From NCBI GenBank assembly GCA_000992345.1, contig LBUA01000001.1, forward strand, positions 13,542-77,541: a stretch of 64,000 bases of DNA, read 5' to 3'. Position numbers and translations under genes: made by a program. Shown in pieces: positions 48,035 through 60,548 of this stretch (positions are counted from its first letter, which is position 1; every line of letters begins with the position of its first letter). Source of the DNA: Parcubacteria group bacterium GW2011_GWD2_38_12 (GTDB lineage: Bacteria > Patescibacteriota > Minisyncoccia > GWC2-36-17). Below the pieces are notes generated by a model, which was not told where the DNA came from, did no database searches, and worked only from the letters and a program-made list of their open reading frames with translations.

Positions 48035-48198
48035 AAATTTTAGAGCAGAAAGCAAATAAAATTTAGATAGTAAATCTTAACCTTGTTAAATCCCCGCGGA
48101 GCTGGGGCGCCAAAGGCGCATTTAACAGGGTACTCGATTTTGAAATAAAATTTTGCGCACTCCGCAAAGCTTCGTTTCAAAATTTCGATAAAATCGGC
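48035..48198 (+). repeat. Family-1 structured repeat element, copy 2 (full length); its last three bases are the ATG of the downstream gene
   Basis: About 85% identical to 53725-53871. Nested hairpins: ccttgttaaat/atttaacaggg enclosing ccccgc-gga-gctgggg and gcgcc-aaa-ggcgc, then ttttgaaat...[tttgcg-cactc-cgcaaa]...cgtttcaaaa, then ..aaaatcggcATG. Confidence 0.75.
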
Positions 48199-48684
48199 AT
48201 GTATGAGATTTATAAATTTTTACATGGAATTGGAATTTTAATGACTGTTGGCGTGATTACCGCGTCGCTTATTTACGGTTGGTATAAAAAATTATTCCCA
48301 AATAATAAATTATTAACCAAAATCCAATTTCCATATAAGTGGATATCTCCGTCGGTGAAAATTGGCCTTGTTGTTTTAATTATTTCCGGCCTTGGGATGT
48401 ATGCGGAGAGAGCGGAACAATTCAATAGTTCGGCGGTTTTTTGGATAAAAATGGGTTTTGTTTTGGCGCTTGTAATAAATAATATTTGGTTAAACAGCAT
48501 TTTAAAACCAAAAGGCAAAAAGATATTTTCCGATCCAGTTCTTGCCAATTCGCCGGAAGCCTTAAAACTTAAAAAGACATTTAATTTTGCAGAAAATCTG
48601 TCTTTATTTTTATGGTTCACAACCATGATTGTAAGTTTTCTTTTGCCTGAGGGCCGTGAAGAGCGCGGAGGAAGAGAATTTTAA
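48199..48684 (+). CDS. Hypothetical membrane protein (4 TM)
   Basis: ORF with TM helices. The start codon is supplied by the upstream repeat element. Confidence 0.4.
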   Translation: MYEIYKFLHGIGILMTVGVITASLIYGWYKKLFPNNKLLTKIQFPYKWISPSVKIGLVVLIISGLGMYAERAEQFNSSAVFWIKMGFVLALVINNIWLNSILKPKGKKIFSDPVLANSPEALKLKKTFNFAENLSLFLWFTTMIVSFLLPEGREERGGREF

Positions 48685-49916: not shown

Positions 49917-49987
49917 TGCGGGATCGTCTAATGGTAGGACTCCGCCCTTTGAAGGCGGCTATCTTGGTTCGAATCCAGGTCCCGCAG
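49917..49987 (+). tRNA. tRNA-Gln (anticodon UUG), CCA not encoded
   Basis: Manual cloverleaf: acceptor TGCGGGA/TCCCGCA (U1-A72, G73 discriminator as in bacterial tRNA-Gln), D-arm GTCT-AATGGTA-GGAC, anticodon arm CCGCC-CTTTGAA-GGCGG, T-arm CTTGG-TTCGAAT-CCAGG. Confidence 0.85.
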
Positions 49988-50049
49988 CACGAGTCAGTGC
50001 GTTATTGAGAGACCGAGAAGGCTATATTTTAAGTTATTAATTATATCTA

Positions 50050-50484
50050 ATGCAAAATTACAAAGACAAAATAATTGAATTTATAAGATTATTTTTGTTA
50101 TCGTTGTTTATAATATTTGTTTTATTAATTTTACCAATACTAATAGAAACTATTTTAAGATTATATTTGGAAAGTAGAACAATTGGCGTATTAATAACAT
50201 CTATTTATTTAATTACTTTTCTATATATTTTATATTATAAAAAAAGAGACAAGAGTAAGACATTTCTAGAAAATTTTTATTTGTTTACAAATTCCATAAG
50301 AAAATCTATAAAAGAAATAATTAGTTTTATTACAAAAATTCCTCACTTTTTTAAATTAACAGGAAATTCTATTATCAAAATAGTAGGTTACATTTTTGTT
50401 GCGGCATTGATAATAATCCCAATATTTATAGTCATAATAATTATGTTAGCCATTATAAAATGGTCTTTTCAAATAGTGTTTTAG
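50050..50484 (+). CDS. Hypothetical membrane protein (AT-rich islet downstream of tRNA-Gln)
   Basis: ORF with 4 TM helices. Very AT-rich codon usage compared with neighbouring housekeeping genes. Confidence 0.35.
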   Translation: MQNYKDKIIEFIRLFLLSLFIIFVLLILPILIETILRLYLESRTIGVLITSIYLITFLYILYYKKRDKSKTFLENFYLFTNSIRKSIKEIISFITKIPHFFKLTGNSIIKIVGYIFVAALIIIPIFIVIIIMLAIIKWSFQIVF

Positions 50485-50508
50485 TTTTTAATCTATTAAA
50501 ATAAGATT

Positions 50509-51111
50509 TTGTTAGTAAATAATTGTTTAGATAAAATATTTATGGAAGATCAAATAATTAAAATATCTGAAGATATAACTTCTATTGCTGATAGCACTAA
50601 TCAAATTCAATCTTATATTAAAATCATCTTACAACGCCATTGGTGGGATACTCAATGGTTTTCTTCGTTATTTGGTGTTATTTTGGGCACTATAATAACA
50701 TTATCGATTGGATGGATGAAAGATTATTTACAATGGAGAAAGAAAATTTTATTGAGTTGGTATAAAAAATTGATAAAAGGCCCAAATTTAGATGATCTAA
50801 TATATCAAGCGCTTCATATTAGTTATGCTTATGGTGGAAAAGATACAAATGACAAATCCTTATCAGAAAAAGTTTTAATTGAGTTTCGTAAAAAATATAA
50901 GCATTGGAATCTTCCATTATTATCAAGACTTCGGTTTTTATTTATAAAATGTGAGAAGTTTATTAAAAAATTACCAAATAAAAATAATGCACAGTATGAA
51001 GAATTTAAGAAAAGTGATGAATATAAAATATTAAATAAAATTTTTAATAAAATTATTTTTATTTCCGAAAAGAGCACCGGAGAAAATCGATGGACATTAA
51101 TTAATGATTAA
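50509..51111 (+). CDS. Hypothetical protein (AT-rich islet)
   Basis: ORF only. One central TM helix. Confidence 0.35.
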   Translation: MLVNNCLDKIFMEDQIIKISEDITSIADSTNQIQSYIKIILQRHWWDTQWFSSLFGVILGTIITLSIGWMKDYLQWRKKILLSWYKKLIKGPNLDDLIYQALHISYAYGGKDTNDKSLSEKVLIEFRKKYKHWNLPLLSRLRFLFIKCEKFIKKLPNKNNAQYEEFKKSDEYKILNKIFNKIIFISEKSTGENRWTLIND

Positions 51112-51265
51112 AATAATTAAATATTTAATTTATAGCTACCACCGCGACCCGACCGAGACGGGTTATTGTGGTATAATAAAAACAGTCAAAAAAGCTCTCA
51201 ACGGTCTCGCTAGTTTTGGTTCTAGACCGGAGTAGCTAGCCAACAAAGATAAGTTGGAAAGACTG

Positions 51266-51299
51266 CCTCGCGGATAGATATCCGCGAGGTTTTTGTTTT
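51266..51299 (+). terminator. Rho-independent terminator (plus orientation) ending a roughly 110-nt possible small transcript
   Basis: cctcgcgga-tagata-tccgcgagg followed by tttttgttttg. Confidence 0.7.
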
Positions 51300-51306
51300 G
51301 TAGGCA

Positions 51307-52017
51307 TTATAGAAGTGATAAAAATTCTTCCAGTTCTTTTCCGATAATTGGCCTTATTTTATTAGGTTTGAGATTACCAAGGCGTATGTTCATAATGCGA
51401 ATTCTTTTTAGATCTGCGACTGCATACCCAAGCGCTCCGCACATTCTTCTGATTTGATGTTTTTTGCCTTCCGTCAGGATTATTCTAAAAGTAAAGTTAT
51501 TGATGCGACTAATTTTGCATTTCTTTGTTCTATAACCATCAATATTCACACCCTCGCTCATGCGTTTGAAAAAACTCGGCTTCAAGGGAGTTCTAACATT
51601 TACGATATATTCTTTTTCGTGATTATATTCAGGACTCAAGAGTTTTTCGGTGATGCGACCATCGTCCGTGAGGATTATTAATCCCTCAGAATCTTTATCA
51701 AGGCGACCCATAGGGAAAATATGTGTATTTAACAAAAAATCGCGAATGCTTTTTTCGTTCATTTGCGGGCTGTGAGTAATAACGCCGCGAGGCTTATTAT
51801 AGGCGATATAAGAATATTTTCTATTCGCTATATCTCTTGGTATTTTTACATCATCTCCTTCGTTGACCATATCGCCAAGCACGGCAATTTTACCATTTAT
51901 AAATACATTTTTTCTTCTAATCAGATCATCAGCCCCTCTGCGGGTCGCGAGGTTATGTAGAGCCAGATATTTATTTATCCTTATTGGATAGGATATTGAT
52001 TTTGAATTTTTAAGCAT
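51307..52017 (-). CDS. rRNA pseudouridine synthase, RsuA/RluB family (S4 domain plus catalytic domain)
   Basis: N-terminal S4 (IRINKYLALHNLATRRGADDLI), catalytic motif GRLDKDSEGLIILTDDG, and C-terminal KxYxV region. Confidence 0.85.
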   Translation of the reverse strand: MLKNSKSISYPIRINKYLALHNLATRRGADDLIRRKNVFINGKIAVLGDMVNEGDDVKIPRDIANRKYSYIAYNKPRGVITHSPQMNEKSIRDFLLNTHIFPMGRLDKDSEGLIILTDDGRITEKLLSPEYNHEKEYIVNVRTPLKPSFFKRMSEGVNIDGYRTKKCKISRINNFTFRIILTEGKKHQIRRMCGALGYAVADLKRIRIMNIRLGNLKPNKIRPIIGKELEEFLSLL

Positions 52018-52445: not shown

Positions 52446-53636
52446 ATGTATAGAAATAACACTCGCCACGGCGAGGGTTCGTTTGGTAGATTTTCCGGCA
52501 ATAGAAAGCGACCAGCGCGTCGCGCGCGTCGCGGTCAAAATATTGATGTTTCAAAATTCATCAATAAAGCGGTCATAACCGAAACAACAGAACATTTTGT
52601 TCCCGAACATTTGTTCGCTGATTTTAATATTGATGCTCGCTTAAAAGCGAATGTCTTAGCTAAAGGATATAATACTCCAACTCCGATTCAGGATAAATCA
52701 ATCCCGCATATTTTGCGCGGATCCGATATTGTGGGTATTGCCAATACCGGAACCGGGAAAACCGGAGCATTTCTTGTTCCTCTTATTCAGAAAGTATTGA
52801 TAAATCATAAAGAAAAAGTTTTGATTATCGTGCCGACTCGCGAATTGGCTTTGCAAATTGATAAAGAATTCAAGAGTTTTGCCAGGGGATTGAATATGTT
52901 TTCCGTGTGTTGTGTCGGCGGCGCGCCTATCGGCAAACAGATTTCTGAATTGAGATATTATAATCATTTCATAATCGGTACCCCGGGCAGATTGAAAGAT
53001 TTGGCTCAAAGGGGCTTTATATCTTTTCCTCAGTTTTCTGCGATTGTCTTAGATGAAGCGGACAGAATGCTTGATATGGGATTTATTGATGATATGAAAT
53101 TTATAATGTCTAAGATGCCCGAGAAACGCCATACGTTATTTTTCTCGGCGACAATGTCTCGAGAAATTGAAGCGCTTATTAAAAATTTTCTACGCGACCC
53201 GATATCTATCTCGGTAAAAACCGGAGATACTCCAAAAAATGTTGATCAAGATATTGTGAGGGTATCGGCGGATAATAAAATAGATATATTGCATAATCTT
53301 CTGAAGAATGAAGAATTCAGCAAGGTGTTGATATTCGGCAGAACAAAACATGGCGTGGAAAAATTATCCGAGATACTGATTGCACGCGGATTTAAAGCGG
53401 AGTCAATCCATGGAGACAAAAATCATGCTAAGAGACAACGGGCCTTGGGACTTTTTATTGATAATCGCATTCAGATTCTTGTTGCTACTGATGTGGCGGC
53501 GCGCGGATTGGATATCCCCAATGTGAGCCATGTCATTAACTACGATATTCCTGCCGCGTACGAAGATTATGTTCACCGCATTGGTCGAACTGGTCGCGGC
53601 AATAAAAAAGGCAAAGCGCTCACATTTATTGGATAA
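52446..53636 (+). CDS. DEAD-box ATP-dependent RNA helicase with an Arg-rich N-terminal tail
   Basis: Q-motif, Walker A ANTGTGKT, DEAD (VLDEADRMLD), SAT and HRIGRTGRG. Confidence 0.9.
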   Translation: MYRNNTRHGEGSFGRFSGNRKRPARRARRGQNIDVSKFINKAVITETTEHFVPEHLFADFNIDARLKANVLAKGYNTPTPIQDKSIPHILRGSDIVGIANTGTGKTGAFLVPLIQKVLINHKEKVLIIVPTRELALQIDKEFKSFARGLNMFSVCCVGGAPIGKQISELRYYNHFIIGTPGRLKDLAQRGFISFPQFSAIVLDEADRMLDMGFIDDMKFIMSKMPEKRHTLFFSATMSREIEALIKNFLRDPISISVKTGDTPKNVDQDIVRVSADNKIDILHNLLKNEEFSKVLIFGRTKHGVEKLSEILIARGFKAESIHGDKNHAKRQRALGLFIDNRIQILVATDVAARGLDIPNVSHVINYDIPAAYEDYVHRIGRTGRGNKKGKALTFIG

Positions 53637-53724
53637 GGGCTTCGTCTAAAATTTGAATCCGCCCAGTCTCGATTTTTCTTGAAAAATCGAGGATGCTCAA
53701 TTACAAAGTAATCGGCACTGGCGG

Positions 53725-53868
53725 AGCACAAATTTTAGAAACAAAACCTTACCCTGTTAAATCCCCGCGAAGCGGGGGTGCGAAAGCGCATTTAACAGGG
53801 TGCTCATTTTTGAAACGAAATTTTGCGCACTCCGCAAAGCTCCGTTTCAAAATTTTGACAAAATCGGC
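53725..53868 (+). repeat. Family-1 structured repeat element, copy 3 (full length); it ends at the ATG (53869) that most likely starts the ABC-F gene
   Basis: cttaccctgttaaat-[ccccgcGAAGcggggg]-[tgcgAAAGcgca]-tttaacaggg ... ttttgaaacg-aaat-[tttgcg-cactc-cgcaaa]-gctc-cgtttcaaaa-ttttgacaaaatcggcATG. Confidence 0.75.
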
Positions 53869-55377
53869 ATGTCGCAAAATGCAAAGCCCCGTAGCGAACG
53901 AAGTTCTGCTGCAGGAGAAGTTATAATCAGATTTGATGAAGTGTCTTTTGAACACGGACCCCAAAAACCCATTCTTGAAGAGGTGGGTTTTTCGGTGCGT
54001 AGAGGAATGAAAGTCACGCTGATGGGGCAAAATGGCGCCGGAAAAAGCACTATTTTTCAACTCATTACCGGAGCGGCAAAACCCGAATCAGGCGCGGTGC
54101 ATATCGGGTCGGATATTATTGTCGCTATTTCGCGGCAAGTAATTCCTCGCGATCAGTTGGATTTAACAGTGCGGGAATTTTTTGAGAAATGTTTTGATAA
54201 AAAAGTTTACGATATAGATCCTAAAATTGATGAGGTGTTGGAAGTGGTGAATTTAAAAGGCCACGAAAAAATGCACAAAAGGATTATTAAGTCATTTTCC
54301 GGCGGTCAGCAGGCGCGGCTTCTTTTGGCGTCGGCGCTCATTCAAGATCCCGATGTATTGCTTCTTGATGAGCCGACCAACAATTTGGATAAAGCCGGTA
54401 TCGCGCATCTGACAAATTTTTTAGTTAATTATAAGAAGACTTGTATTGTTATTTCTCACGACGCGGATTTTCTCAACGCTTTCACGCAGGGCGTTTTGTA
54501 TCTTGATATATTTACTCGCAAAATAGAACAATATGTCGGTAATTATTTTGATGTGGTGAAACAAATCTCTGTTCGAATAGAAAAAGAAAATAGAAAGAAT
54601 GCGTTATTAGCAAAAGAGATTCAGGAGAATAAAGACAAGGCAAACTTTTTTGCGCACAAAGGCGGACGTATGAGGTTGCTCGCTAAACGTATGCGTGAGA
54701 AAGCCGAGGAGATGGAAGAAGAAAAAGTTGATGTGCGAAAAGAAGATAAACCCATCAGGCCGTTTATTATTCCTTTCCAAGAGGATTTGATAGGGGAGAT
54801 TATAAATATCTCATCTTTCACGACGATGAAAAATCATCAGCCAGCAGAACACAAAGCCAAAATTTCAATGAAGAAAAATCAGCACTTGCTCTTATCCGGC
54901 CCCAATGGCATCGGCAAAAGCACATTACTAAAATCCATCGCCAAAGGTACTGTAGGGGGCGTGGCGATTGCCCGAGGTGTCCGCGTCGGGTATTATTGCC
55001 AAGACTTTTCTACGCTTAATTTTGATGAAACTGTTTATGAATCGCTCGTGTCGGCGATGGAGAAAGCGACCGGAAAAAAAGACGATGAATTCATCCGTGC
55101 TATCGCTGCGAGTTTTATGATTAGAGGTGATATGGTTTATTCTAAAATCGGCAGTTTGTCCGAAGGGCAAAAGGGGCTCGTTGCTTTTGCGCGACTGGTA
55201 ATTCAAAAACCCGGCCTTTTGATACTTGATGAGCCAACCAATCACATCAATTTTCGCCATTTACCAGTCATCGCTGGAGCGCTCAACAAATACGACGGCG
55301 CGATGATTCTCGTCAGCCATGTCCCCGAATTCGTCTCCCAAATCCGCATTGATGAGATATTGGATTTAGAGAAATAG
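53869..55377 (+). CDS. ABC-F family ATPase (tandem ABC domains, no TMD; ribosome-associated EttA/Uup-like). Start placed at the ATG supplied by the repeat; the annotated ORF extends upstream to 53800 through the repeat.
   Basis: Two Walker A motifs (GQNGAGKST; GPNGIGKST), two signatures (FSGGQQARLLLASAL; LSEGQKGLVAFARL) and an inter-domain linker with a charged arm. Confidence 0.85.
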   Translation: MSQNAKPRSERSSAAGEVIIRFDEVSFEHGPQKPILEEVGFSVRRGMKVTLMGQNGAGKSTIFQLITGAAKPESGAVHIGSDIIVAISRQVIPRDQLDLTVREFFEKCFDKKVYDIDPKIDEVLEVVNLKGHEKMHKRIIKSFSGGQQARLLLASALIQDPDVLLLDEPTNNLDKAGIAHLTNFLVNYKKTCIVISHDADFLNAFTQGVLYLDIFTRKIEQYVGNYFDVVKQISVRIEKENRKNALLAKEIQENKDKANFFAHKGGRMRLLAKRMREKAEEMEEEKVDVRKEDKPIRPFIIPFQEDLIGEIINISSFTTMKNHQPAEHKAKISMKKNQHLLLSGPNGIGKSTLLKSIAKGTVGGVAIARGVRVGYYCQDFSTLNFDETVYESLVSAMEKATGKKDDEFIRAIAASFMIRGDMVYSKIGSLSEGQKGLVAFARLVIQKPGLLILDEPTNHINFRHLPVIAGALNKYDGAMILVSHVPEFVSQIRIDEILDLEK

Positions 55378-55385
55378 GTTTTGTC

Positions 55386-55409
55386 ATTCCCGCGAAGGCG
55401 GGAATTTAG
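55386..55409 (+). terminator. Terminator hairpin with a GCGAAG mini-loop
   Basis: attcccgc-gaag-gcgggaat followed by tt. Confidence 0.6.
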
Positions 55410-55460
55410 TCCATGGCCATTGCGATTCAGTAGGTGATTGTGGTCAATCAGGCACGAAGC
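55393..55460. repeat. Family-2 repeat element, copy B (inverted relative to 22312-22372)
   Basis: cagtaggtgattgtggtcaatcaggcacgaagcaatct is the reverse complement of 22316-22353 (37/38). Confidence 0.7.
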
Positions 55461-55548
55461 AATCTCTCCGTAATAGAATGTCGCCGAAAGGCGGCTTTTT
55501 AAAATTTGCGTTTTTTACGATTTCAGTGTATAATATAAAGAATAAATT

Positions 55549-55803
55549 ATGCAAAAACCTGATGTAAAAATAAAAGATTGGATTGGGATAGGCGAAAGCA
55601 GGCCCTTGTGCTCTCCTCTGTATGCGGTTGTTTGCAATATTAGCCATGATGATATAGAAGTGGTATACCTTCAAAACGATCACAAGCCGGTAAAACAAGA
55701 AGTTATTTGGGATGGAGAAACGTGGCAATTTAATACTAATTCCGGCATTACCTTGAGAGAAGGTGAGGGATATGAGTTTATACAGATTTTAAAAAATAGA
55801 TAA
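55549..55803 (+). CDS. Hypothetical small protein (orphan cassette gene 1)
   Basis: ORF only. Confidence 0.3.
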   Translation: MQKPDVKIKDWIGIGESRPLCSPLYAVVCNISHDDIEVVYLQNDHKPVKQEVIWDGETWQFNTNSGITLREGEGYEFIQILKNR

Positions 55804-55816
55804 AAAATAAAAATAA

Positions 55817-56170
55817 ATGGGAAAAATATTGTCAATAAATCACAAGCTTGGTAAAGCGGATATATCTTTAGATGATGTTTTGATTAGGCTTTTTATTAAG
55901 TATTATAATGGCACATGCTCTGAAATAAGAATATGGAAGCTACCATTAAAAAGAAGTTTTTGGAGCATGTTTAATGTTAAAAATTTAATTTGGGCTATTT
56001 ATAATGACGACGCTAAATATATTCATGGTTGGTTTTCAAGAGATGGTGATATTCTGGAAGTTTTAACAAGGAAGATTGAAAAATGTAATAATTATAATGA
56101 TCTTAAAGAATTGCTTATTAAATTAGAGAATATTATAAATGGAATTTCTTTACCACATGATGAGTTATAA
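55817..56170 (+). CDS. Hypothetical small protein (orphan cassette gene 2)
   Basis: ORF only. Confidence 0.3.
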   Translation: MGKILSINHKLGKADISLDDVLIRLFIKYYNGTCSEIRIWKLPLKRSFWSMFNVKNLIWAIYNDDAKYIHGWFSRDGDILEVLTRKIEKCNNYNDLKELLIKLENIINGISLPHDEL

Positions 56171-56191
56171 AATTTTTTAAATTAGCGAAAT

Positions 56192-56407
56192 ATGAAAAAT
56201 ATAATTATTATTTTAATAATTTTAGTAGCCGCCATCGGTAGCGGATTGTTTTATTGGTATGAGTATAGACCGAATAAAATAAGAAGTTATTGCAATGATA
56301 AGGCACAAGATACTTTAACCGGCTCACTTCGAGAATTTGTAGCGGTTCAAGCCAACTATGAAGATAATTATAAAAAATGTTTAAGAGGTAATGGAATAAG
56401 AGAGTAA
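56192..56407 (+). CDS. Hypothetical small signal-anchored protein with two Cys (orphan cassette gene 3)
   Basis: N-terminal TM/signal helix. Confidence 0.3.
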   Translation: MKNIIIILIILVAAIGSGLFYWYEYRPNKIRSYCNDKAQDTLTGSLREFVAVQANYEDNYKKCLRGNGIRE

Positions 56408-56423
56408 GTTAAATAAAATTTTT

Positions 56424-56747
56424 ATGGGAAATTTAACAGATGCTTTAAAAAAATATAATGGAAATTCGTTGCCAGAAGATATAATTAAGGGGTTGCAAGA
56501 TGGTGGTTATACTCATGGATTAAATCCGGCGACAGAGGAACCGATTTTTCAAAACTATTTAACTGCTTTATTAAACTCAAAAACTAATAAAGAATTGTCT
56601 GTATCTTTAAATAATTTTAAGGATGTGATAAAAGAATTCTCGCTTTCAAGTTTTGAGTCAACAAAAGCATTGAATCTTTGGACAATGGTATTGGCGTTTG
56701 CCACAACAGCATTAGTATTTGTGACAATCGTAGCGATATTTTATTAA
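56424..56747 (+). CDS. Hypothetical C-tail-anchored small protein (orphan cassette gene 4)
   Basis: C-terminal TM helix. Confidence 0.3.
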   Translation: MGNLTDALKKYNGNSLPEDIIKGLQDGGYTHGLNPATEEPIFQNYLTALLNSKTNKELSVSLNNFKDVIKEFSLSSFESTKALNLWTMVLAFATTALVFVTIVAIFY

Positions 56748-56754
56748 GAGTAAA

Positions 56755-57129
56755 TTGTTTGAAAATATGAATTTTACTGAAGCAAACAAAATTTTTAAAA
56801 TTTGGAGTGAATGGTATTGGCCATCTCACTTTATACTGCATTCAGTTTTTCTCAATAAAATACCGGAATCTTTTTTGCCATATCAAAAAAATGTTTTAGA
56901 GGAGGCACTAAATATTATAGCAAAGCAATATTATGACAATGGCGATTTTAAGGTCTCCAAAAATATCCAAGAATCTATCGCGTCTCTTGCGGCTTATGTA
57001 AGAGATGATGATGCCTTACAGCAAGTGTCTGACAGATTATCTGATGTTAAGATGAGAGAGGCTGTACTTATTTATATTTCAAATTTTAAAAAAGATTGGA
57101 AAAATTGGTTAGACAAACAAGAGGATTAA
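56755..57129 (+). CDS. Hypothetical small protein, Trp-rich N-terminus (orphan cassette gene 5)
   Basis: ORF only. Confidence 0.3.
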   Translation: MFENMNFTEANKIFKIWSEWYWPSHFILHSVFLNKIPESFLPYQKNVLEEALNIIAKQYYDNGDFKVSKNIQESIASLAAYVRDDDALQQVSDRLSDVKMREAVLIYISNFKKDWKNWLDKQED

Positions 57130-57217
57130 AAAGAAAGGCATATGTCTCATAAGTCAAGATAAAATAAACCTTTTTAAAATTTTTTAACAAAATTTAATTG
57201 CTTGAGATAGTTGTATT

Positions 57218-57598
57218 TTGGATAATATGAATAATAAATCAGAGGAAATTATTAAAAAATCAATTGAACAAGCAATTATTAACGCTGTTAGTAAAAAAAT
57301 ATATCCACCACAGCAACCAGGCTTTTTAGGCAGATTTTTAAAAAAATCGCCAGGAAAATACATAGACCTAAATATCGAAGAAGATAAGAGTGGTTGCAAT
57401 AAGATAATATTTAAATTAGAAAATTATAAAAATCCAGTTAGTATCGATCTTGAAAAGATTTTTGAAGGAATATTTTGGACAGAATTTTTCGATGCTGATA
57501 AGTATACAGAAGTCAGTGAATACGTTGATAAATTTGAAAAATTAAATACATGGGATGAAAAAGCAAACTTTTTAAGCCAATGTTTAAAAAGTTTTTAA
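57218..57598 (+). CDS. Hypothetical small protein (orphan cassette gene 6)
   Basis: ORF only. Confidence 0.3.
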   Translation: MDNMNNKSEEIIKKSIEQAIINAVSKKIYPPQQPGFLGRFLKKSPGKYIDLNIEEDKSGCNKIIFKLENYKNPVSIDLEKIFEGIFWTEFFDADKYTEVSEYVDKFEKLNTWDEKANFLSQCLKSF

Positions 57599-57604
57599 TT
57601 CGGT

Positions 57605-58132
57605 ATGCATTCAAAAGAAAACAATTTTGCGTATATTGATGGGGCGAATTTACATAATGGCATTGCCGGTTTGGGTTGGAAGCTGGATTATAAAAGATTT
57701 AGAGTGTGGCTGTCTGATAAATACGGCATAAAAAGCGCCTATATTTTTATTGGTTTAATACCGAAATATAAAGATTTATATAAATATCTCCAAGAATGCG
57801 GATTTACCTTGATATTCAAAGAGGTGGTGTATAACAGCGATGGGAAACCAAAAGGGAATTGTGATGCGGATTTAGTTTTGCAATCAGTATGCGATGCGTA
57901 TAAAAATAAATTTGATAAAGCAATTATCGTTTCGAGTGATGGCGATTATGCCGGACTGGTTAAATTTCTTAAGGAACGCGGAAAATTAAAAACAATACTG
58001 TCGCCTCATACTAAAAATCTCTGCTCTATTCTTCTAAAAAGGACGAATGCGCCGATTGCTTATTTGAATGATCAAAAAACAATTTTACGGGATAAAAAAG
58101 AAAAAGCCCCCGATGCGGACAAAACCGCATAG
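57605..58132 (+). CDS. NYN-domain (LabA-like, PIN-related) predicted ribonuclease
   Basis: NFAYIDGANLHNG ... CDADLVL ... IVSSDGDYAGLV, which are the hallmark Asp residues of the NYN/LabA fold. Confidence 0.75.
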   Translation: MHSKENNFAYIDGANLHNGIAGLGWKLDYKRFRVWLSDKYGIKSAYIFIGLIPKYKDLYKYLQECGFTLIFKEVVYNSDGKPKGNCDADLVLQSVCDAYKNKFDKAIIVSSDGDYAGLVKFLKERGKLKTILSPHTKNLCSILLKRTNAPIAYLNDQKTILRDKKEKAPDADKTA

Positions 58133-58262
58133 GGGTCTTTTTCGTAAGTATTAACTATATAATAGCAAGCGCTTGTAAAAAGTCAATAGTCAGTAAAATG
58201 CCTTATTGCATCTATATTTTATAATGTTTTGATAAGTAAAAATTTAAAAAATATATAATAAA

Positions 58263-58296
58263 AATGCGATGATTTACCGCCATCGCATTTTTTTGT
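58263..58296 (+). terminator. Strong rho-independent terminator 2 nt before the helicase start codon
   Basis: atgcgatg-atttaccgcc-atcgcat followed by ttttttt. Confidence 0.7.
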
Positions 58297-58297
58297 T

Positions 58298-59977
58298 ATG
58301 ATATGGGCTATGAAACAAAATACGGCTCTCAAAATTTTAAAAACGGGACGGAATGTGTATTTGACCGGTGCTCCAGGGAGCGGAAAGACGCATATTTTAA
58401 ACGAATATATAAACTATCTGAGAAATCACGGCATTTCTGTTGGCGTGACCGCTTCCACTGGTATCGCGGCGACGCACATTGGTGGCGTTACGATTCATTC
58501 TTGGTCCGGTATGGGAGTGAAAGATTTTTTATCCGACGATGATATCTCGTATATCGTGCATAAAAAATATTTGCAAAAGCGTTTTGATAAAACGCGAGTG
58601 CTTGTCATTGATGAAGTTTCAATGCTGAGCCCCAAGATACTCGACAATGTTGATCGGGTGTGTCGCGCGGCGAAAGGAAATCAAAATCCTTTTGGCGGAA
58701 TGCAAGTTGTGCTTTCCGGAGATTTTTTCCAATTGCCTCCGATTACGCAGGGTGGCTCTTCTGTGCAATTTGTAAATACTTCTCGCGCGTGGAAAGAAAT
58801 GGACATTCGCGTTTGTTATTTGGACGAGCAATTCAGGCACGAAGATAACACGCTGGAGGCGATATTAAATGAAATGCGCGGCGGATTTGTCTCGCAAAAA
58901 ACGCGGGATGTTTTGGCGAGCCAATGCGAGAAAAATTTTGCAAATGGTATAGCGCCGACGCGGCTCTATGCGCACAATATTGATGTGGATATTCTTAATG
59001 AGAGGGAACTTGCCAAATTGCCGGGCGAAGCGCAAGAATTTGAAATGCAAATAAAAGGCAAAGATATTCTTGTTAAATCATTGAAGAAAAGCATATTGGC
59101 GCCGGAATTTTTGAAATTAAAAAAAGACGCCGTAGTGATGTTTGTAAAAAATAATTTTGATGCGGGATATGTGAATGGCACCTTAGGGATTATTGATGGA
59201 TTTGATAATGATGGCGCGCCGATTGTACGTTTATTTTCCGACAAAAAAATTACCGTGTTACCGGTCCAGTGGGCTGTTGAAGAAGACGGTAAAATATTGG
59301 CGAGAGCAGAACAATTGCCGCTTCGCCTCGCGTGGGCGATTATTACCATCCACAAAAGCCAAGGGATGAGTATGGATGCGGCCGAAATTGATTTATCCAA
59401 GGCGTTTGTGCCCGGGCAAGGATATGTGGCATTGTCGCGCTTGCGAACGCTCGCCGGGCTTGTGCTTTTGGGGATGAACGAAATGGCATTTGCTGTGCAT
59501 CCGGAAGTCGCGACGCTTGATAGGAGTTTGCTTTTGAATTCGGAAAAATGGGAGCAGGAAATAGCGCAATTTGACAATGACAAACTCCGTATAATGCACA
59601 AAGATTTTATTTTGAAATTTGGTGGCACGACAGATGAAAAAGAAATAGCAAAAAATAAAAATAAAGAAAAAGAAAACAGTAAAGACCGCGTCTCTACCCA
59701 CGAGAAAACAAAAGAGTTTGTGAATTTGGGATTGTCTCTCGCTGAAATCGCGAGCGGCAGAGAGATGACTATAGGAACAATCATTTCTCATTTGGAAAAA
59801 CTCAAAGAGCTCGGAGTGGAAATGAATTTTGAAAAATTTAAACCCAATGAAAGCGATTTAAGAAAAATAAAAGAGGCGTTCGCGGCGACCGGCGACACAA
59901 AACTATCTCCCGTCCACCGCCTTCTTTGCGGAGAATATTCCTACGACGACATCCGCCTAGCGCGATTATTTTTATAA
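58298..59977 (+). CDS. Pif1/RecD-like superfamily-1 DNA helicase with a C-terminal HTH domain
   Basis: Walker A GAPGSGKTH, VIDEVSML, QLPPI, and C-terminal LAEIASGREMTIGTIISHL. Confidence 0.85.
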   Translation: MIWAMKQNTALKILKTGRNVYLTGAPGSGKTHILNEYINYLRNHGISVGVTASTGIAATHIGGVTIHSWSGMGVKDFLSDDDISYIVHKKYLQKRFDKTRVLVIDEVSMLSPKILDNVDRVCRAAKGNQNPFGGMQVVLSGDFFQLPPITQGGSSVQFVNTSRAWKEMDIRVCYLDEQFRHEDNTLEAILNEMRGGFVSQKTRDVLASQCEKNFANGIAPTRLYAHNIDVDILNERELAKLPGEAQEFEMQIKGKDILVKSLKKSILAPEFLKLKKDAVVMFVKNNFDAGYVNGTLGIIDGFDNDGAPIVRLFSDKKITVLPVQWAVEEDGKILARAEQLPLRLAWAIITIHKSQGMSMDAAEIDLSKAFVPGQGYVALSRLRTLAGLVLLGMNEMAFAVHPEVATLDRSLLLNSEKWEQEIAQFDNDKLRIMHKDFILKFGGTTDEKEIAKNKNKEKENSKDRVSTHEKTKEFVNLGLSLAEIASGREMTIGTIISHLEKLKELGVEMNFEKFKPNESDLRKIKEAFAATGDTKLSPVHRLLCGEYSYDDIRLARLFL

Positions 59978-59982
59978 AATCA

Positions 59983-60264
59983 ATGCCTTATTATGTTTAT
60001 ATTCTAGAATGCGCGGATGGGTCGCTCTATGTCGGATCCACAAATGATTTGGAAAAAAGATTACATCAGCACAACAATTCAAAATCCGGAGCCCATTATA
60101 CAAAAATGAGAAGACCGGTCGCTCTGAAGTATTCCGAGAAGTTGAAAAATCTCAGTGAGGCGCTCAAAAGAGAAATAGAGATTAAAAGATGGAAGAGAGA
60201 GAAGAAACTAAAATTAATTAAAAGTCATAAATTTACCGAAAAGGAAAAGAATGCTTTTTATTAA
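59983..60264 (+). CDS. GIY-YIG nuclease-domain protein (YhbQ/UPF0213-like, about 93 aa)
   Basis: YYVYILECADGSLYVGSTNDLEKRLHQHN ... E.K.W. Confidence 0.8.
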   Translation: MPYYVYILECADGSLYVGSTNDLEKRLHQHNNSKSGAHYTKMRRPVALKYSEKLKNLSEALKREIEIKRWKREKKLKLIKSHKFTEKEKNAFY

Positions 60265-60493
60265 TTTTATCTTTTTTATAGATAGTTGGTTTAATGCCTT
60301 TTGGTTTGGCGTAGGGAGTATATATCTTTGTTTTAGTTTCATCTTGCCAGACTTCTACAATATCTTTTTCATTTACTTTAGTGCCAAGCGGAGAGAGTTT
60401 CCCGTTGATATAGACTTGTTTATTTACAATGAGTTTATCCACTTCTCTCCGATTTGATTTATATCTCAACGCTAGATATTTATTGATTCGCAT
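60233..60493 (-). pseudogene. S4-domain fragment homologous to the N-terminus of the RsuA/RluB pseudouridine synthase at 51307-52017. Likely a truncated paralogue; its 3' end overlaps the GIY-YIG gene.
   Basis: MRINKYLALRYKSNRREVDKLIVNKQVYINGK...KIYTPYAKPKGI aligns with IRINKYLALHNLATRRGADDLIRRKNVFINGK...YSYIAYNKPRGV. The sequence stops before the catalytic Asp motif. Confidence 0.45.
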
Positions 60494-60548
60494 TGGGTAA
60501 GTTGGGTTTTCCATGGTGGAAATATAACAAATAATGCAAATTAAGCAA

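Follow-up and report, generated by a model that had tools for sequence, protein, structure and literature searches.

The segment 55381-57603 of the window (the whole stretch of 64,000 nucleotides analysed here, from Parcubacteria group bacterium GW2011_GWD2_38_12) is best explained as an allelic version of a replacement islet that varies between strains and carries a mosaic cargo of small genes. The probability of this account as a whole is estimated at roughly 70%, and its structural and evolutionary part is highly probable. The slot is fixed between a housekeeping ABC-F gene and a conserved gene for a NYN-domain nuclease. Into this slot the allele found in the window (allele A) brings its own leader, terminator and putative promoter together with six unrelated small genes, and the alleles have been swapped by homologous recombination via the conserved flanks, the left crossover being still visible as a tract of 140 bp. 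The locus is an ordinary variable islet, and the NYN gene is not the core of any shared system. Even a very small CPR/Parcubacteria genome keeps, in this way, a place that differs between strains and receives alternative sets of foreign genes, which is relevant to the diversification of uncultivated episymbionts and to how they cope with phages.

Two Alleles in One Slot

The source organism belongs to a population from the Rifle aquifer (groundwater), and the haplotypes were compared among contigs of this one population, whose flanks are 98.4-99.97% identical. Allele A is found at loci L001, L003, L007, L010-L018 and L190-L198. At the loci with allele B (L002, L004-L006, L008 and L009), positions 55381-57603 are replaced by 791 bp (GC 0.27) encoding one unrelated, soluble protein of 233 amino acids preceded by a different leader and followed, 19 nt later, by the NYN gene. 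The two inserts, of 2.2 kb in allele A and 0.8 kb in allele B, share no similarity, and the contigs with allele A show zero SNPs within the cassette. The breakpoints, 55380 and 57604, coincide with the stop codon of the ABC-F gene and the start codon of the NYN gene. On the right, the variable stretch stops at 57603/57604, a single base short of the NYN ATG, and the NYN gene, taken in the first-pass annotation as the last member of the cassette, lies outside it.

The alleles are exchanged by homologous recombination through the flanks. On its left side, the exchanged segment begins with the 3′ end of the ABC-F gene and its stop codon (55239-55380, plus strand), a tract about 18% divergent over 140 bp. 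Between 55239 and 55378, 26 SNPs separate the window from L002 and L004 (17 synonymous and 7 non-synonymous), as compared with just 2 SNPs in the 1.2 kb before 55239. The right flank has no divergent tract. The crossover on this side is invisible because the NYN gene is near-identical between the alleles, and the NYN start may instead be the site of an illegitimate junction. A search for a third allele by means of a one-residue variant of the NYN protein yielded only allele A and two apparently chimeric contigs from 2015; the alleles seen in the slot are two only, a thin basis for the term hotspot.

The proposal that the cassette is acquired cargo is supported by these comparisons: conserved synteny across related genomes, which would argue for core genes, was not found, and in a sister haplotype of more than 99% identity the cassette is replaced. 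It is also absent from 80 Pif1-anchored loci of related species, a set in which each species is represented by one genome and Pif1 synteny is too weak to rely on, and from 77 loci with relatives of the NYN gene. In the relatives from Ca. Yonathbacteria (Pif1 identity of 64-67%), the compared flanking sequence contains no ABC-F or NYN homologue.

The insert would also be foreign if it were what is left of a prophage or of another integrative element, with moron-like cargo. In this sense, it is worth considering the low GC content, a weak match of the second cassette protein (ORF2) to a PHROG (2.4e-4) and the fact that the family of the allele-B protein, with more than 3000 members, is common on viral contigs (79 in IMG/VR). 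This origin is nonetheless quite unlikely. Searches with Pfam, PADLOC and PHROGs revealed no integrase or recombinase gene in the insert, and structural genes are likewise absent; no direct repeats flank the junctions, which fall exactly at a stop and a start codon, and the nearest tRNA gene (49917-49988) is 5.4 kb away. In addition, the concatenated six-protein query has no tblastn match in the INPHARED phages or the PLSDB plasmids, IMG/VR scans with ORF1, ORF3, ORF4, ORF5 and ORF6 and with the ORF2 alignment returned zero relatives, and ORF2 has no structural match in BFVD.

Organization and Composition of the Cassette

The cassette consists of six co-directional open reading frames of 71-126 amino acids, which extend over 55549-57598 of the plus strand and lead straight into the NYN nuclease gene, which is intact. 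From ORF1 through the NYN gene, the gaps between each stop codon and the next ATG are 13, 21, 16, 19, 97 and 6 nt. Plus-strand frames of at least 70 amino acids fill 0.93 of 55549-57598, and in 2000 first-order Markov simulations the mean coverage was 0.016 and the maximum 0.36. The packing noted at first reading is thus far above simulated coverage and not due to chance.

The composition of the insert is atypical. The GC content of 55381-57603 is 0.30, whereas the whole window has 0.368 and the flanking genes reach 0.41-0.43; across the 64 kb, only three patches, this one included, fall below 0.31. Similarly, the GC content at third codon positions (GC3) is 0.19-0.27 in ORF2 to ORF6 and 0.38-0.45 in the flanks. 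The description of the cassette as AT-rich therefore holds for the whole, with the exception of ORF1 (GC 0.37) and the leader of 168 nt (GC 0.41).

The six proteins show no similarity to one another. In searches of Pfam, PADLOC, PHROGs and NCBIfam they stayed below threshold throughout, with noise such as MHC_I_2, VHS, and phrog_35454 at 2.4e-4, and no defence, toxin, antitoxin, toxin-antitoxin (TA) or immunity model was matched; Rfam reported no RNA family over 53000-59000. The possibility that the frames are fragments of one decayed larger gene was ruled out: each has its own ATG start, none resembles another or the larger partner genes of the ORF2 relatives, and ORF2 and ORF5 are full-length with respect to their own families.

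The NYN Gene and the Transcription Unit

The gene that follows ORF6 after 6 nt (57605-58132, plus strand) encodes a protein of 175 amino acids, which is, on sequence grounds, a predicted NYN/LabA-like nuclease, single-domain and full-length, with an intact acidic active site. The domain seen in the first-pass annotation was recovered with Pfam PF01936 (E-value 2.9e-14; 54.2 bits, cutoff 24.2), residues 10-136 aligning to model positions 5-130 of 145, and residues D12, N15, D87, D89, D112 and D114 are conserved in at least 97% of 73 NYN relatives. Both haplotypes encode the same NYN protein, and the gene differs between them by one SNP; the NYN gene thus belongs to the conserved flank and not to the cargo.

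Within the leader of allele A (55381-55548, plus strand; 168 nt), which begins where homology to allele B stops (55380), two hairpins are found on the plus strand: a GNRA-type hairpin at 55386-55405 and, identified by the terminator scan, a terminator-like hairpin with a U5 tract at 55479-55500, which would insulate the cassette from the ABC-F gene. They fold at -13.7 and -13.4 kcal/mol (z-scores of -3.5 and -4.0). A TG-TATAAT -10 element can be read at 55527-55534 (plus strand), 14 nt 5′ of the ORF1 ATG; it was missed by the promoter scan because of its weak -35, and the promoter is a putative one. At the other end, a hairpin over the NYN stop codon, followed by UCUUUUU (58104-58145, plus strand; -18.8 kcal/mol, z-score -3.3), is likely the end of the transcription unit. 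A second, bidirectional terminator-like hairpin lies between the NYN and Pif1 genes (58260-58299; -13.3 kcal/mol, z-score -4.9). The cassette had been described as bounded by strong terminators and repeat elements; the hairpins with U-tracts, at 55479-55500, 58104-58139 and 58260-58292, do fold well (z-scores from -3.3 to -4.9), while the repeats are not at the boundaries. The nearest real repeat, 53730-53872, which matches 48059-48202, is located at the 5′ end of the ABC-F gene, 1.5 kb from the cassette edge.

Judging from this architecture, the promoter of each allele may read through into the NYN gene, since the gaps are of 6 and 19 nt and a terminator appears only after NYN. The spacing suggests that the NYN gene is probably co-transcribed with whichever cargo lies 5′ of it. 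Its expression would then be coupled to the cargo without functional dedication.

A stronger reading of the same facts is a multi-gene defence or TA-like system with the NYN RNase as effector or, in modular form, an immune locus in which swappable, promoter-bearing cargo supplies interchangeable sensors or regulators that gate or direct the constant, co-transcribed RNase. The abutment of both alleles on NYN ahead of a shared terminator, the intact catalytic aspartates, the two membrane-anchored cassette proteins and partial matches to PADLOC models are consistent with it; if true, the six genes would make up a novel sensing module of CPR bacteria, with several components and an association with the membrane. 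This reading is very unlikely, in either form, and so is a weaker variant, according to which the ORF2 family would be a conserved and previously unrecognised companion of DUF2971/PDC-S31 abortive-infection genes. In the other haplotype, the gene for the identical NYN protein is preceded by one gene unrelated to the cassette, contrary to the idea of a module built around the RNase. Examination of the neighbourhoods of NYN homologues, suggested at the outset, points the same way: relatives at 67-85% identity were located on 77 other (non-conspecific) contigs, in unrelated operons (for instance, with one half of a split transketolase on either side), and neither ORF1 to ORF6 nor allele B was present at any of them. 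Conversely, relatives of ORF2, ORF5 and the allele-B protein never adjoin NYN. The matches themselves are short. That to HEC-09 (E-value 7.4e-8) spans 64 residues of the catalytic core (residues 86-149, model positions 106-169 of 203), the PADLOC NYN model PDLC01154 is covered only in the C-terminal half of its 310 positions, and no full-length match to either was obtained. HEC-09, a NYN candidate consisting of one gene and located within Hma systems, gave no phage protection when tested and showed no defence activity (bioRxiv 10.1101/2024.01.29.577857). The window protein is like HEC-09 in the NYN catalytic core and the conserved aspartates; unlike it, the protein lacks the N-terminal HTH-like region and stands outside any defence system. 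The likeness to LabA-like NYN proteins (PF01936) holds for the flanking gene 57605-58132 and not for the six ORFs. Separating NYN from its variable neighbours avoids the false annotation of a NYN defence system.

Families and Possible Roles of the Cargo

The six genes, all on the plus strand, differ in how far they can be placed in families. ORF1 (55549-55803; 84 amino acids, GC 0.37) is acidic (pI 5.0), and ORF6 (57227-57598; 123 amino acids, or 126 from a TTG at 57218) is the most AT-rich gene (GC3 0.19); neither has a homologue in Pfam, PADLOC, PHROGs, NCBIfam or IMG/VR. Two proteins are predicted from hydropathy to be membrane-anchored, in agreement with the first reading: ORF3 (56192-56407; 71 amino acids), with an N-terminal transmembrane anchor (KD19 peak of 2.62 at residue 4) followed by a small basic domain containing two Cys, and ORF4 (56424-56747; 107 amino acids), which is C-tail-anchored (KD19 peak of 2.57 at residue 88). 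For these two, Pfam, PADLOC, PHROGs and NCBIfam gave no family match and the IMG/VR scans were empty.

The remaining two are not orphans, as all six had been called at first. ORF2 (55817-56170; 117 amino acids) belongs to a small unannotated family with 13 homologues and has an alpha/beta fold, a 4-5-stranded meander with 3-4 helices. ORF5 (56767-57129; 120 amino acids, or 124 from a TTG at 56755) belongs to a sizeable unannotated family of five-helix proteins, marked by the motif IPESFLPYP and counting at least 174 cluster representatives. Relatives of ORF2 occur in five different contexts, with a different downstream gene in each and without any other cassette gene; the closest ORF5 relative is likewise found without other cassette genes. 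The relatives occur singly, in other variable, locally AT-rich neighbourhoods, and in these contexts none lies beside NYN or beside a member of the other family. The cargo is a mosaic and not a co-evolved system as far as ORF2 and ORF5 are concerned, and by extrapolation ORF1, ORF3, ORF4 and ORF6 would be of the same nature. A type II toxin-antitoxin module was rejected, given that no TA family is matched and the ORF2 relatives have no constant downstream partner.

Several contexts of these relatives point to conflict with phages or mobile elements. The genes directly 3′ of two ORF2 relatives match PADLOC PDC-S31 (4.8e-21 and 4.5e-9), and one of them also matches Pfam DUF2971, the domain of the abortive-infection system Aristaios (PMC11381338). 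Other ORF2 relatives are near a HigB/HTH pair, a Phd antitoxin and an IS200 transposase, and one relative of the allele-B protein adjoins a PD-T4-3/PDC-S11-like GIY-YIG gene, a serine recombinase and a type I restriction-modification (R-M) system. By this association, in a handful of contexts, a looser reading of the genes as conflict-related accessory genes is plausible. That the cargo actually serves such conflict, in part at the membrane and by way of defence, exclusion or counter-defence, is a more tentative proposal, standing somewhat short of even odds.

A more specific interpretation, contained in the first-pass annotation, was an array of orphan immunity genes or a polymorphic-toxin cassette. 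Small, unrelated, tightly packed proteins in a variable AT-rich locus would suit such an array, and DUF2971 proteins, the neighbours of some ORF2 relatives, have an ADP-ribosyltransferase-like fold. Nevertheless, this interpretation is very unlikely. The upstream neighbour is a complete ABC-F ATPase, with no toxin gene or C-terminal toxin fragment and no sign of T6SS, T7SS or CDI secretion at the locus; no database match was found, SUKH, Imm and other immunity families being absent by Pfam and by fold, and the AF2 models of ORF2 and ORF5 matched no immunity or toxin fold. Moreover, the ORF2 relatives lie 5′, not 3′, of the DUF2971 genes, which are single-gene candidate systems. Profile searches of the PDB with the ORF2, ORF5 and allele-B alignments likewise gave nothing meaningful.

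Small surface proteins without annotation are abundant in CPR genomes. This fact, together with the membrane anchors of two of the six proteins and the position of the closest ORF5 relative among small multi-pass membrane proteins, could suggest accessory genes not related to conflict, such as small proteins of the envelope or for host attachment, with which each strain would adjust its episymbiotic lifestyle. Such a role is unlikely, considering that allele B encodes a soluble protein of 233 amino acids with relatives in contexts of the defence-island type and on viral contigs, and that the neighbourhoods of the ORF2 relatives are rich in TA, defence and IS genes.

Relation to Known Variable Loci

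Replacement-type flexible genomic islands and islets are loci that vary between strains while keeping their position between core genes, found in marine and other bacterial populations. The locus described here resembles them in its fixed slot, near-identical flanks, unrelated contents and atypical composition, and also in the lack of an integrase or att site, with exchange via flanking homology and a visible divergent tract. Unlike usual replacement islets, it is very small, its cargo does not consist of glycosylation or surface-polysaccharide genes, and its host is a CPR bacterium with a reduced genome. With defence islands and core-genome defence hotspots it shares a variable, low-GC cargo flanked by conserved genes, and relatives of this cargo adjoin PDC-S31/DUF2971 (Aristaios-like; PMC11381338), PD-T4-3-like, type I R-M and TA genes; in contrast to those islands, the cassette genes themselves match no known or candidate defence model of PADLOC, and the link with defence is second-hand. 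The ORF2-like, ORF5-like and allele-B families are candidates for conflict-related functions, and all three are under purifying selection, with dN/dS values of 0.11-0.34.

An exchangeable segment between ABC-F and NYN

Exact-sequence look-ups assign the window to contig US71_C0001 (154.5 kb) of Parcubacteria group bacterium GW2011_GWD2_38_12, whose CPR genome derives from the Rifle aquifer. Between the ABC-F gene and the NYN gene (57605-58132), contigs with an exact copy of the window's NYN protein carry either six small ORFs (ORF1-6, + strand, 55549-57598; allele A, present in the window) or a single ORF of 233 aa (allele B; contigs L002, L004, L005, L006, L008 and L009). When the allele-B contigs are aligned to the window, the flanks on both sides of the insert are 98.4-99.6% identical. 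Homology ends on the left at 55380, three bases past the ABC-F stop codon, and restarts on the right at 57604, one base ahead of the NYN ATG; the exchanged segment is 2223 bp long in allele A, the other haplotype having 791 bp (GC 0.27) in its place, and no similarity was found on comparing the two inserts. These breakpoints therefore define the variable unit as the leader plus ORF1-6, and NYN is part of the conserved flank, outside this unit. The replacement of the cassette by an unrelated insert within near-identical flanks bears out the proposal of the first-pass annotation that it is acquired accessory cargo.

Of the 26 SNPs that separate the haplotypes in the last 140 bp of ABC-F (55239-55378), 17 are synonymous and 7 non-synonymous; elsewhere there are two in the 1.2 kb preceding 55239 and one in NYN. 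This stretch is a homologous-recombination tract from a more divergent lineage with the same ABC-F-then-cargo arrangement. Together, these data show a fixed slot holding alternative foreign inserts that were swapped by homologous recombination. No integrase, att-type repeat or adjacent tRNA was found at the locus, and a prophage remnant is an unlikely origin for the insert. With its alternative low-GC inserts in a fixed ABC-F/NYN slot, the locus is a small replacement-type flexible islet: a known kind of feature, here with a new example in a CPR genome.

The cassette has zero SNPs among the allele-A contigs, and a look-up of a one-residue NYN variant returned only allele A and two apparently chimeric GenBank contigs of 2015. 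The latter, L194 (LCEK01000043.1) and L196 (LBXT01000025.1), from bins labelled Moranbacteria and Yanofskybacteria, join portions of the ABC-F/NYN locus with genes unrelated to it (CheX; MreB/MreC/tRNA synthetase), probably through chimeric assembly or mis-binning.

Anatomy and probable expression of the cassette

The earlier observation of a six-ORF cassette was largely right. The six ORFs, all labelled hypothetical proteins in their database entries (exact-sequence look-ups), lie where they had been placed, with stop-to-next-ATG gaps, from ORF1 through NYN, of 13, 21, 16, 19, 97 and 6 nt. Such packing is not due to chance: 93% of 55549-57598 is occupied by same-strand ORFs of at least 70 aa, whereas 2000 Markov simulations that kept the composition gave a mean of 1.6% and a maximum of 36%. 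The AT-richness described for the cassette holds for the segment overall (GC 0.30 in 55381-57603, against 0.368 in the window and 0.41-0.43 in ABC-F, DEAD and Pif1) and for ORF2-6 (GC3 0.19-0.27; flanks 0.38-0.45), but not for ORF1, which is intermediate (GC3 0.34), as is NYN (0.33). Only three 1-kb patches within the 64-kb window have a GC below 0.31. Hydrophobicity predicts an N-terminal membrane anchor in ORF3 and a C-terminal one in ORF4, as previously noted. The terminators described around the cassette are confirmed as stable hairpins with U-tracts at 55479-55500, 58104-58139 and 58260-58292 (z within -3.3 to -4.9). The repeat elements said to bound it are not there: the only real nearby repeat (53730-53872) sits at the 5′ end of ABC-F.

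Judging from this anatomy, allele A would bring its own terminator, insulating the cassette from ABC-F, as well as a putative -10 element (TG-TATAAT, 55527-55534); this element comes from direct reading of the sequence and was missed by the promoter scan owing to a weak -35. Allele B has a different AT-rich leader with a promoter-like pair, TTGCTA...TATAAA. A spacer of 6 or 19 nt separates the end of the final cargo gene from the NYN ATG in the two alleles, and the first terminator follows NYN, so that in both of them NYN is probably transcribed from the promoter of the cargo.

The NYN nuclease

The product of 57605-58132 carries a genuine NYN/LabA-like domain (Pfam, 2.9e-14). Across 73 relatives its acidic active-site residues D12, D87, D89, D112 and D114 do not vary. 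A system built around this RNase, as suggested initially, is unlikely. A metagenome scan for NYN recovered 80 loci, and ORF1-6, allele B, ABC-F and Pif1 are absent from all 77 that are non-conspecific (67-85% protein identity). The window protein does match PADLOC HEC-09, but the likeness is limited to the catalytic core, and the single study that tested HEC-09 detected no defence by it (bioRxiv 10.1101/2024.01.29.577857).

The 443 proteins neighboring NYN relatives form 248 clusters. At about ten loci on groundwater contigs (70-85% identity), NYN is flanked by a split transketolase, with the N-terminal half on one side and the C-terminal half on the other; other neighbors are HsdM (about four loci), AdoHcy hydrolase and, in many cases, tandem NYN paralogues or small GIY-YIG genes (the last at loci L116, L134, L154 and L155). 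Loci with such contexts include L106, L121, L157, L165, L167, L168 and L172-L174. NYN has the appearance of a highly conserved nuclease gene found in shifting contexts, possibly a selfish or mobile one.

Conserved synteny across related genomes, which would have indicated core genes, was not found. In a comparison of 80 Pif1-anchored loci from one-genome-per-species data, the cassette proteins had no tblastn match, and the ABC-F/cassette/NYN arrangement is missing even in the closest relatives, Ca. Yonathbacteria (Pif1 64-67% identity).

Cargo families and their possible role

The cargo genes are uncharacterised but real, and two of the six are not orphans as had been thought. ORF2 has 13 homologues (48-79% identity, 28 invariant columns, dN/dS 0.11-0.17), and its AF2 model with the family alignment shows a beta-meander plus helices (pLDDT 86.8). 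Its relatives occur in five independent contexts (L182-184, L185, L186, L187 and L278-280), all lacking NYN and the other cassette genes; every context tested is locally AT-rich relative to its own contig. The immediate downstream gene differs in each: a 260-aa protein matching PADLOC PDC-S31 (4.8e-21); a 288-aa protein matching PDC-S31 (4.5e-9) and Pfam DUF2971; a 203-aa coiled-coil protein beside an IS200-type transposase; a 252-aa protein with no assigned family; and, in L186, a HigB-like/HTH pair some 600 nt farther on, in the vicinity of a Phd antitoxin. DUF2971 is a domain of Aristaios, a lactococcal abortive-infection system, and has an ADP-ribosyltransferase-like fold (PMC11381338). 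In two lineages (L182 6432-7627 and L185 770-2034) the ORF2-type gene lies 48-63 nt upstream of such an Aristaios-like PDC-S31/DUF2971 gene, and blastp detects no similarity between these two downstream genes; it could be a recurrent companion or just share islet residence.

For ORF5, an exhaustive search at E<=1e-3 gave at least 174 cluster representatives, among them tandem duplicates and fusions to FtsK-gamma or DUF6804. IPESFLPYP is a motif common to the family, the dN/dS is 0.34, and the AF2 model with the family alignment is a confident five-helix bundle (pLDDT 96.8). The closest relative sits amid small membrane proteins, with no other cassette gene nearby. For ORF1, ORF3, ORF4 and ORF6 no relatives were found in HMM libraries, phage/plasmid tblastn, IMG/VR scans or 2.8 Mb of fetched loci. 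The six proteins show no similarity to one another and have no paralogues elsewhere in the window; the immunity-gene array once suggested is not supported and is an improbable reading.

The allele-B protein (L002 5112-5813) belongs to a large unannotated family of 3255 matches (33 invariant columns; family loci also L019-L021 and L199-L277), with 55-69% identity across Patescibacteria, Acidobacteria, Leptospiraceae and Peribacteria, and no Pfam, NCBIfam, PADLOC or PDB match. Its relatives are scattered among unrelated settings, one within a TetR/enoyl-CoA-hydratase operon and another, in L021, adjoining a PD-T4-3/PDC-S11-like GIY-YIG gene, a serine recombinase and a type I R-M system; members are also present on 79 IMG/VR viral contigs. 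The family is mobile, unlinked to NYN, and a candidate new conflict-related family.

A role of the cargo in phage or mobile-element conflict is tentatively favored (probability roughly 0.4), because PDC-S31/DUF2971, PD-T4-3-like, R-M, TA and IS genes associate with the relatives. The main functional alternative is a non-conflict role, in the envelope or in host interaction. The most useful leads from the locus are the unannotated ORF2, ORF5 and allele-B families.

Other features near the locus

Directly after the tRNA-Gln gene (49917-49988) the GC drops to as low as 0.19, in a patch that is the most AT-rich in the window and contains two unannotated ORFs (144 and 189 aa); 49917-51500 may be a tRNA-adjacent islet, which the allele-B strain (L002) shares at least in its right part. 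A direct repeat of 145 nt, rich in GNRA-type hairpins, was noticed in two copies (48059-48202 and 53730-53872) that are about 87% identical; the second copy overlaps the ABC-F ORF at its 5′ end. In strain L018, 53 SNPs in 53500-54500 mark another recombination tract, at the opposite end of ABC-F from the first. A stand-alone GIY-YIG gene (59926-60264, 93 aa) starts 2 nt past the Pif1 stop codon. Finally, a small S4-domain ORF (60233-60514, - strand) has 93 aa in the window and some strains, but gene calls for others (L001, L010, L012 and L013) give it 69 aa, which suggests a strain-specific truncation.
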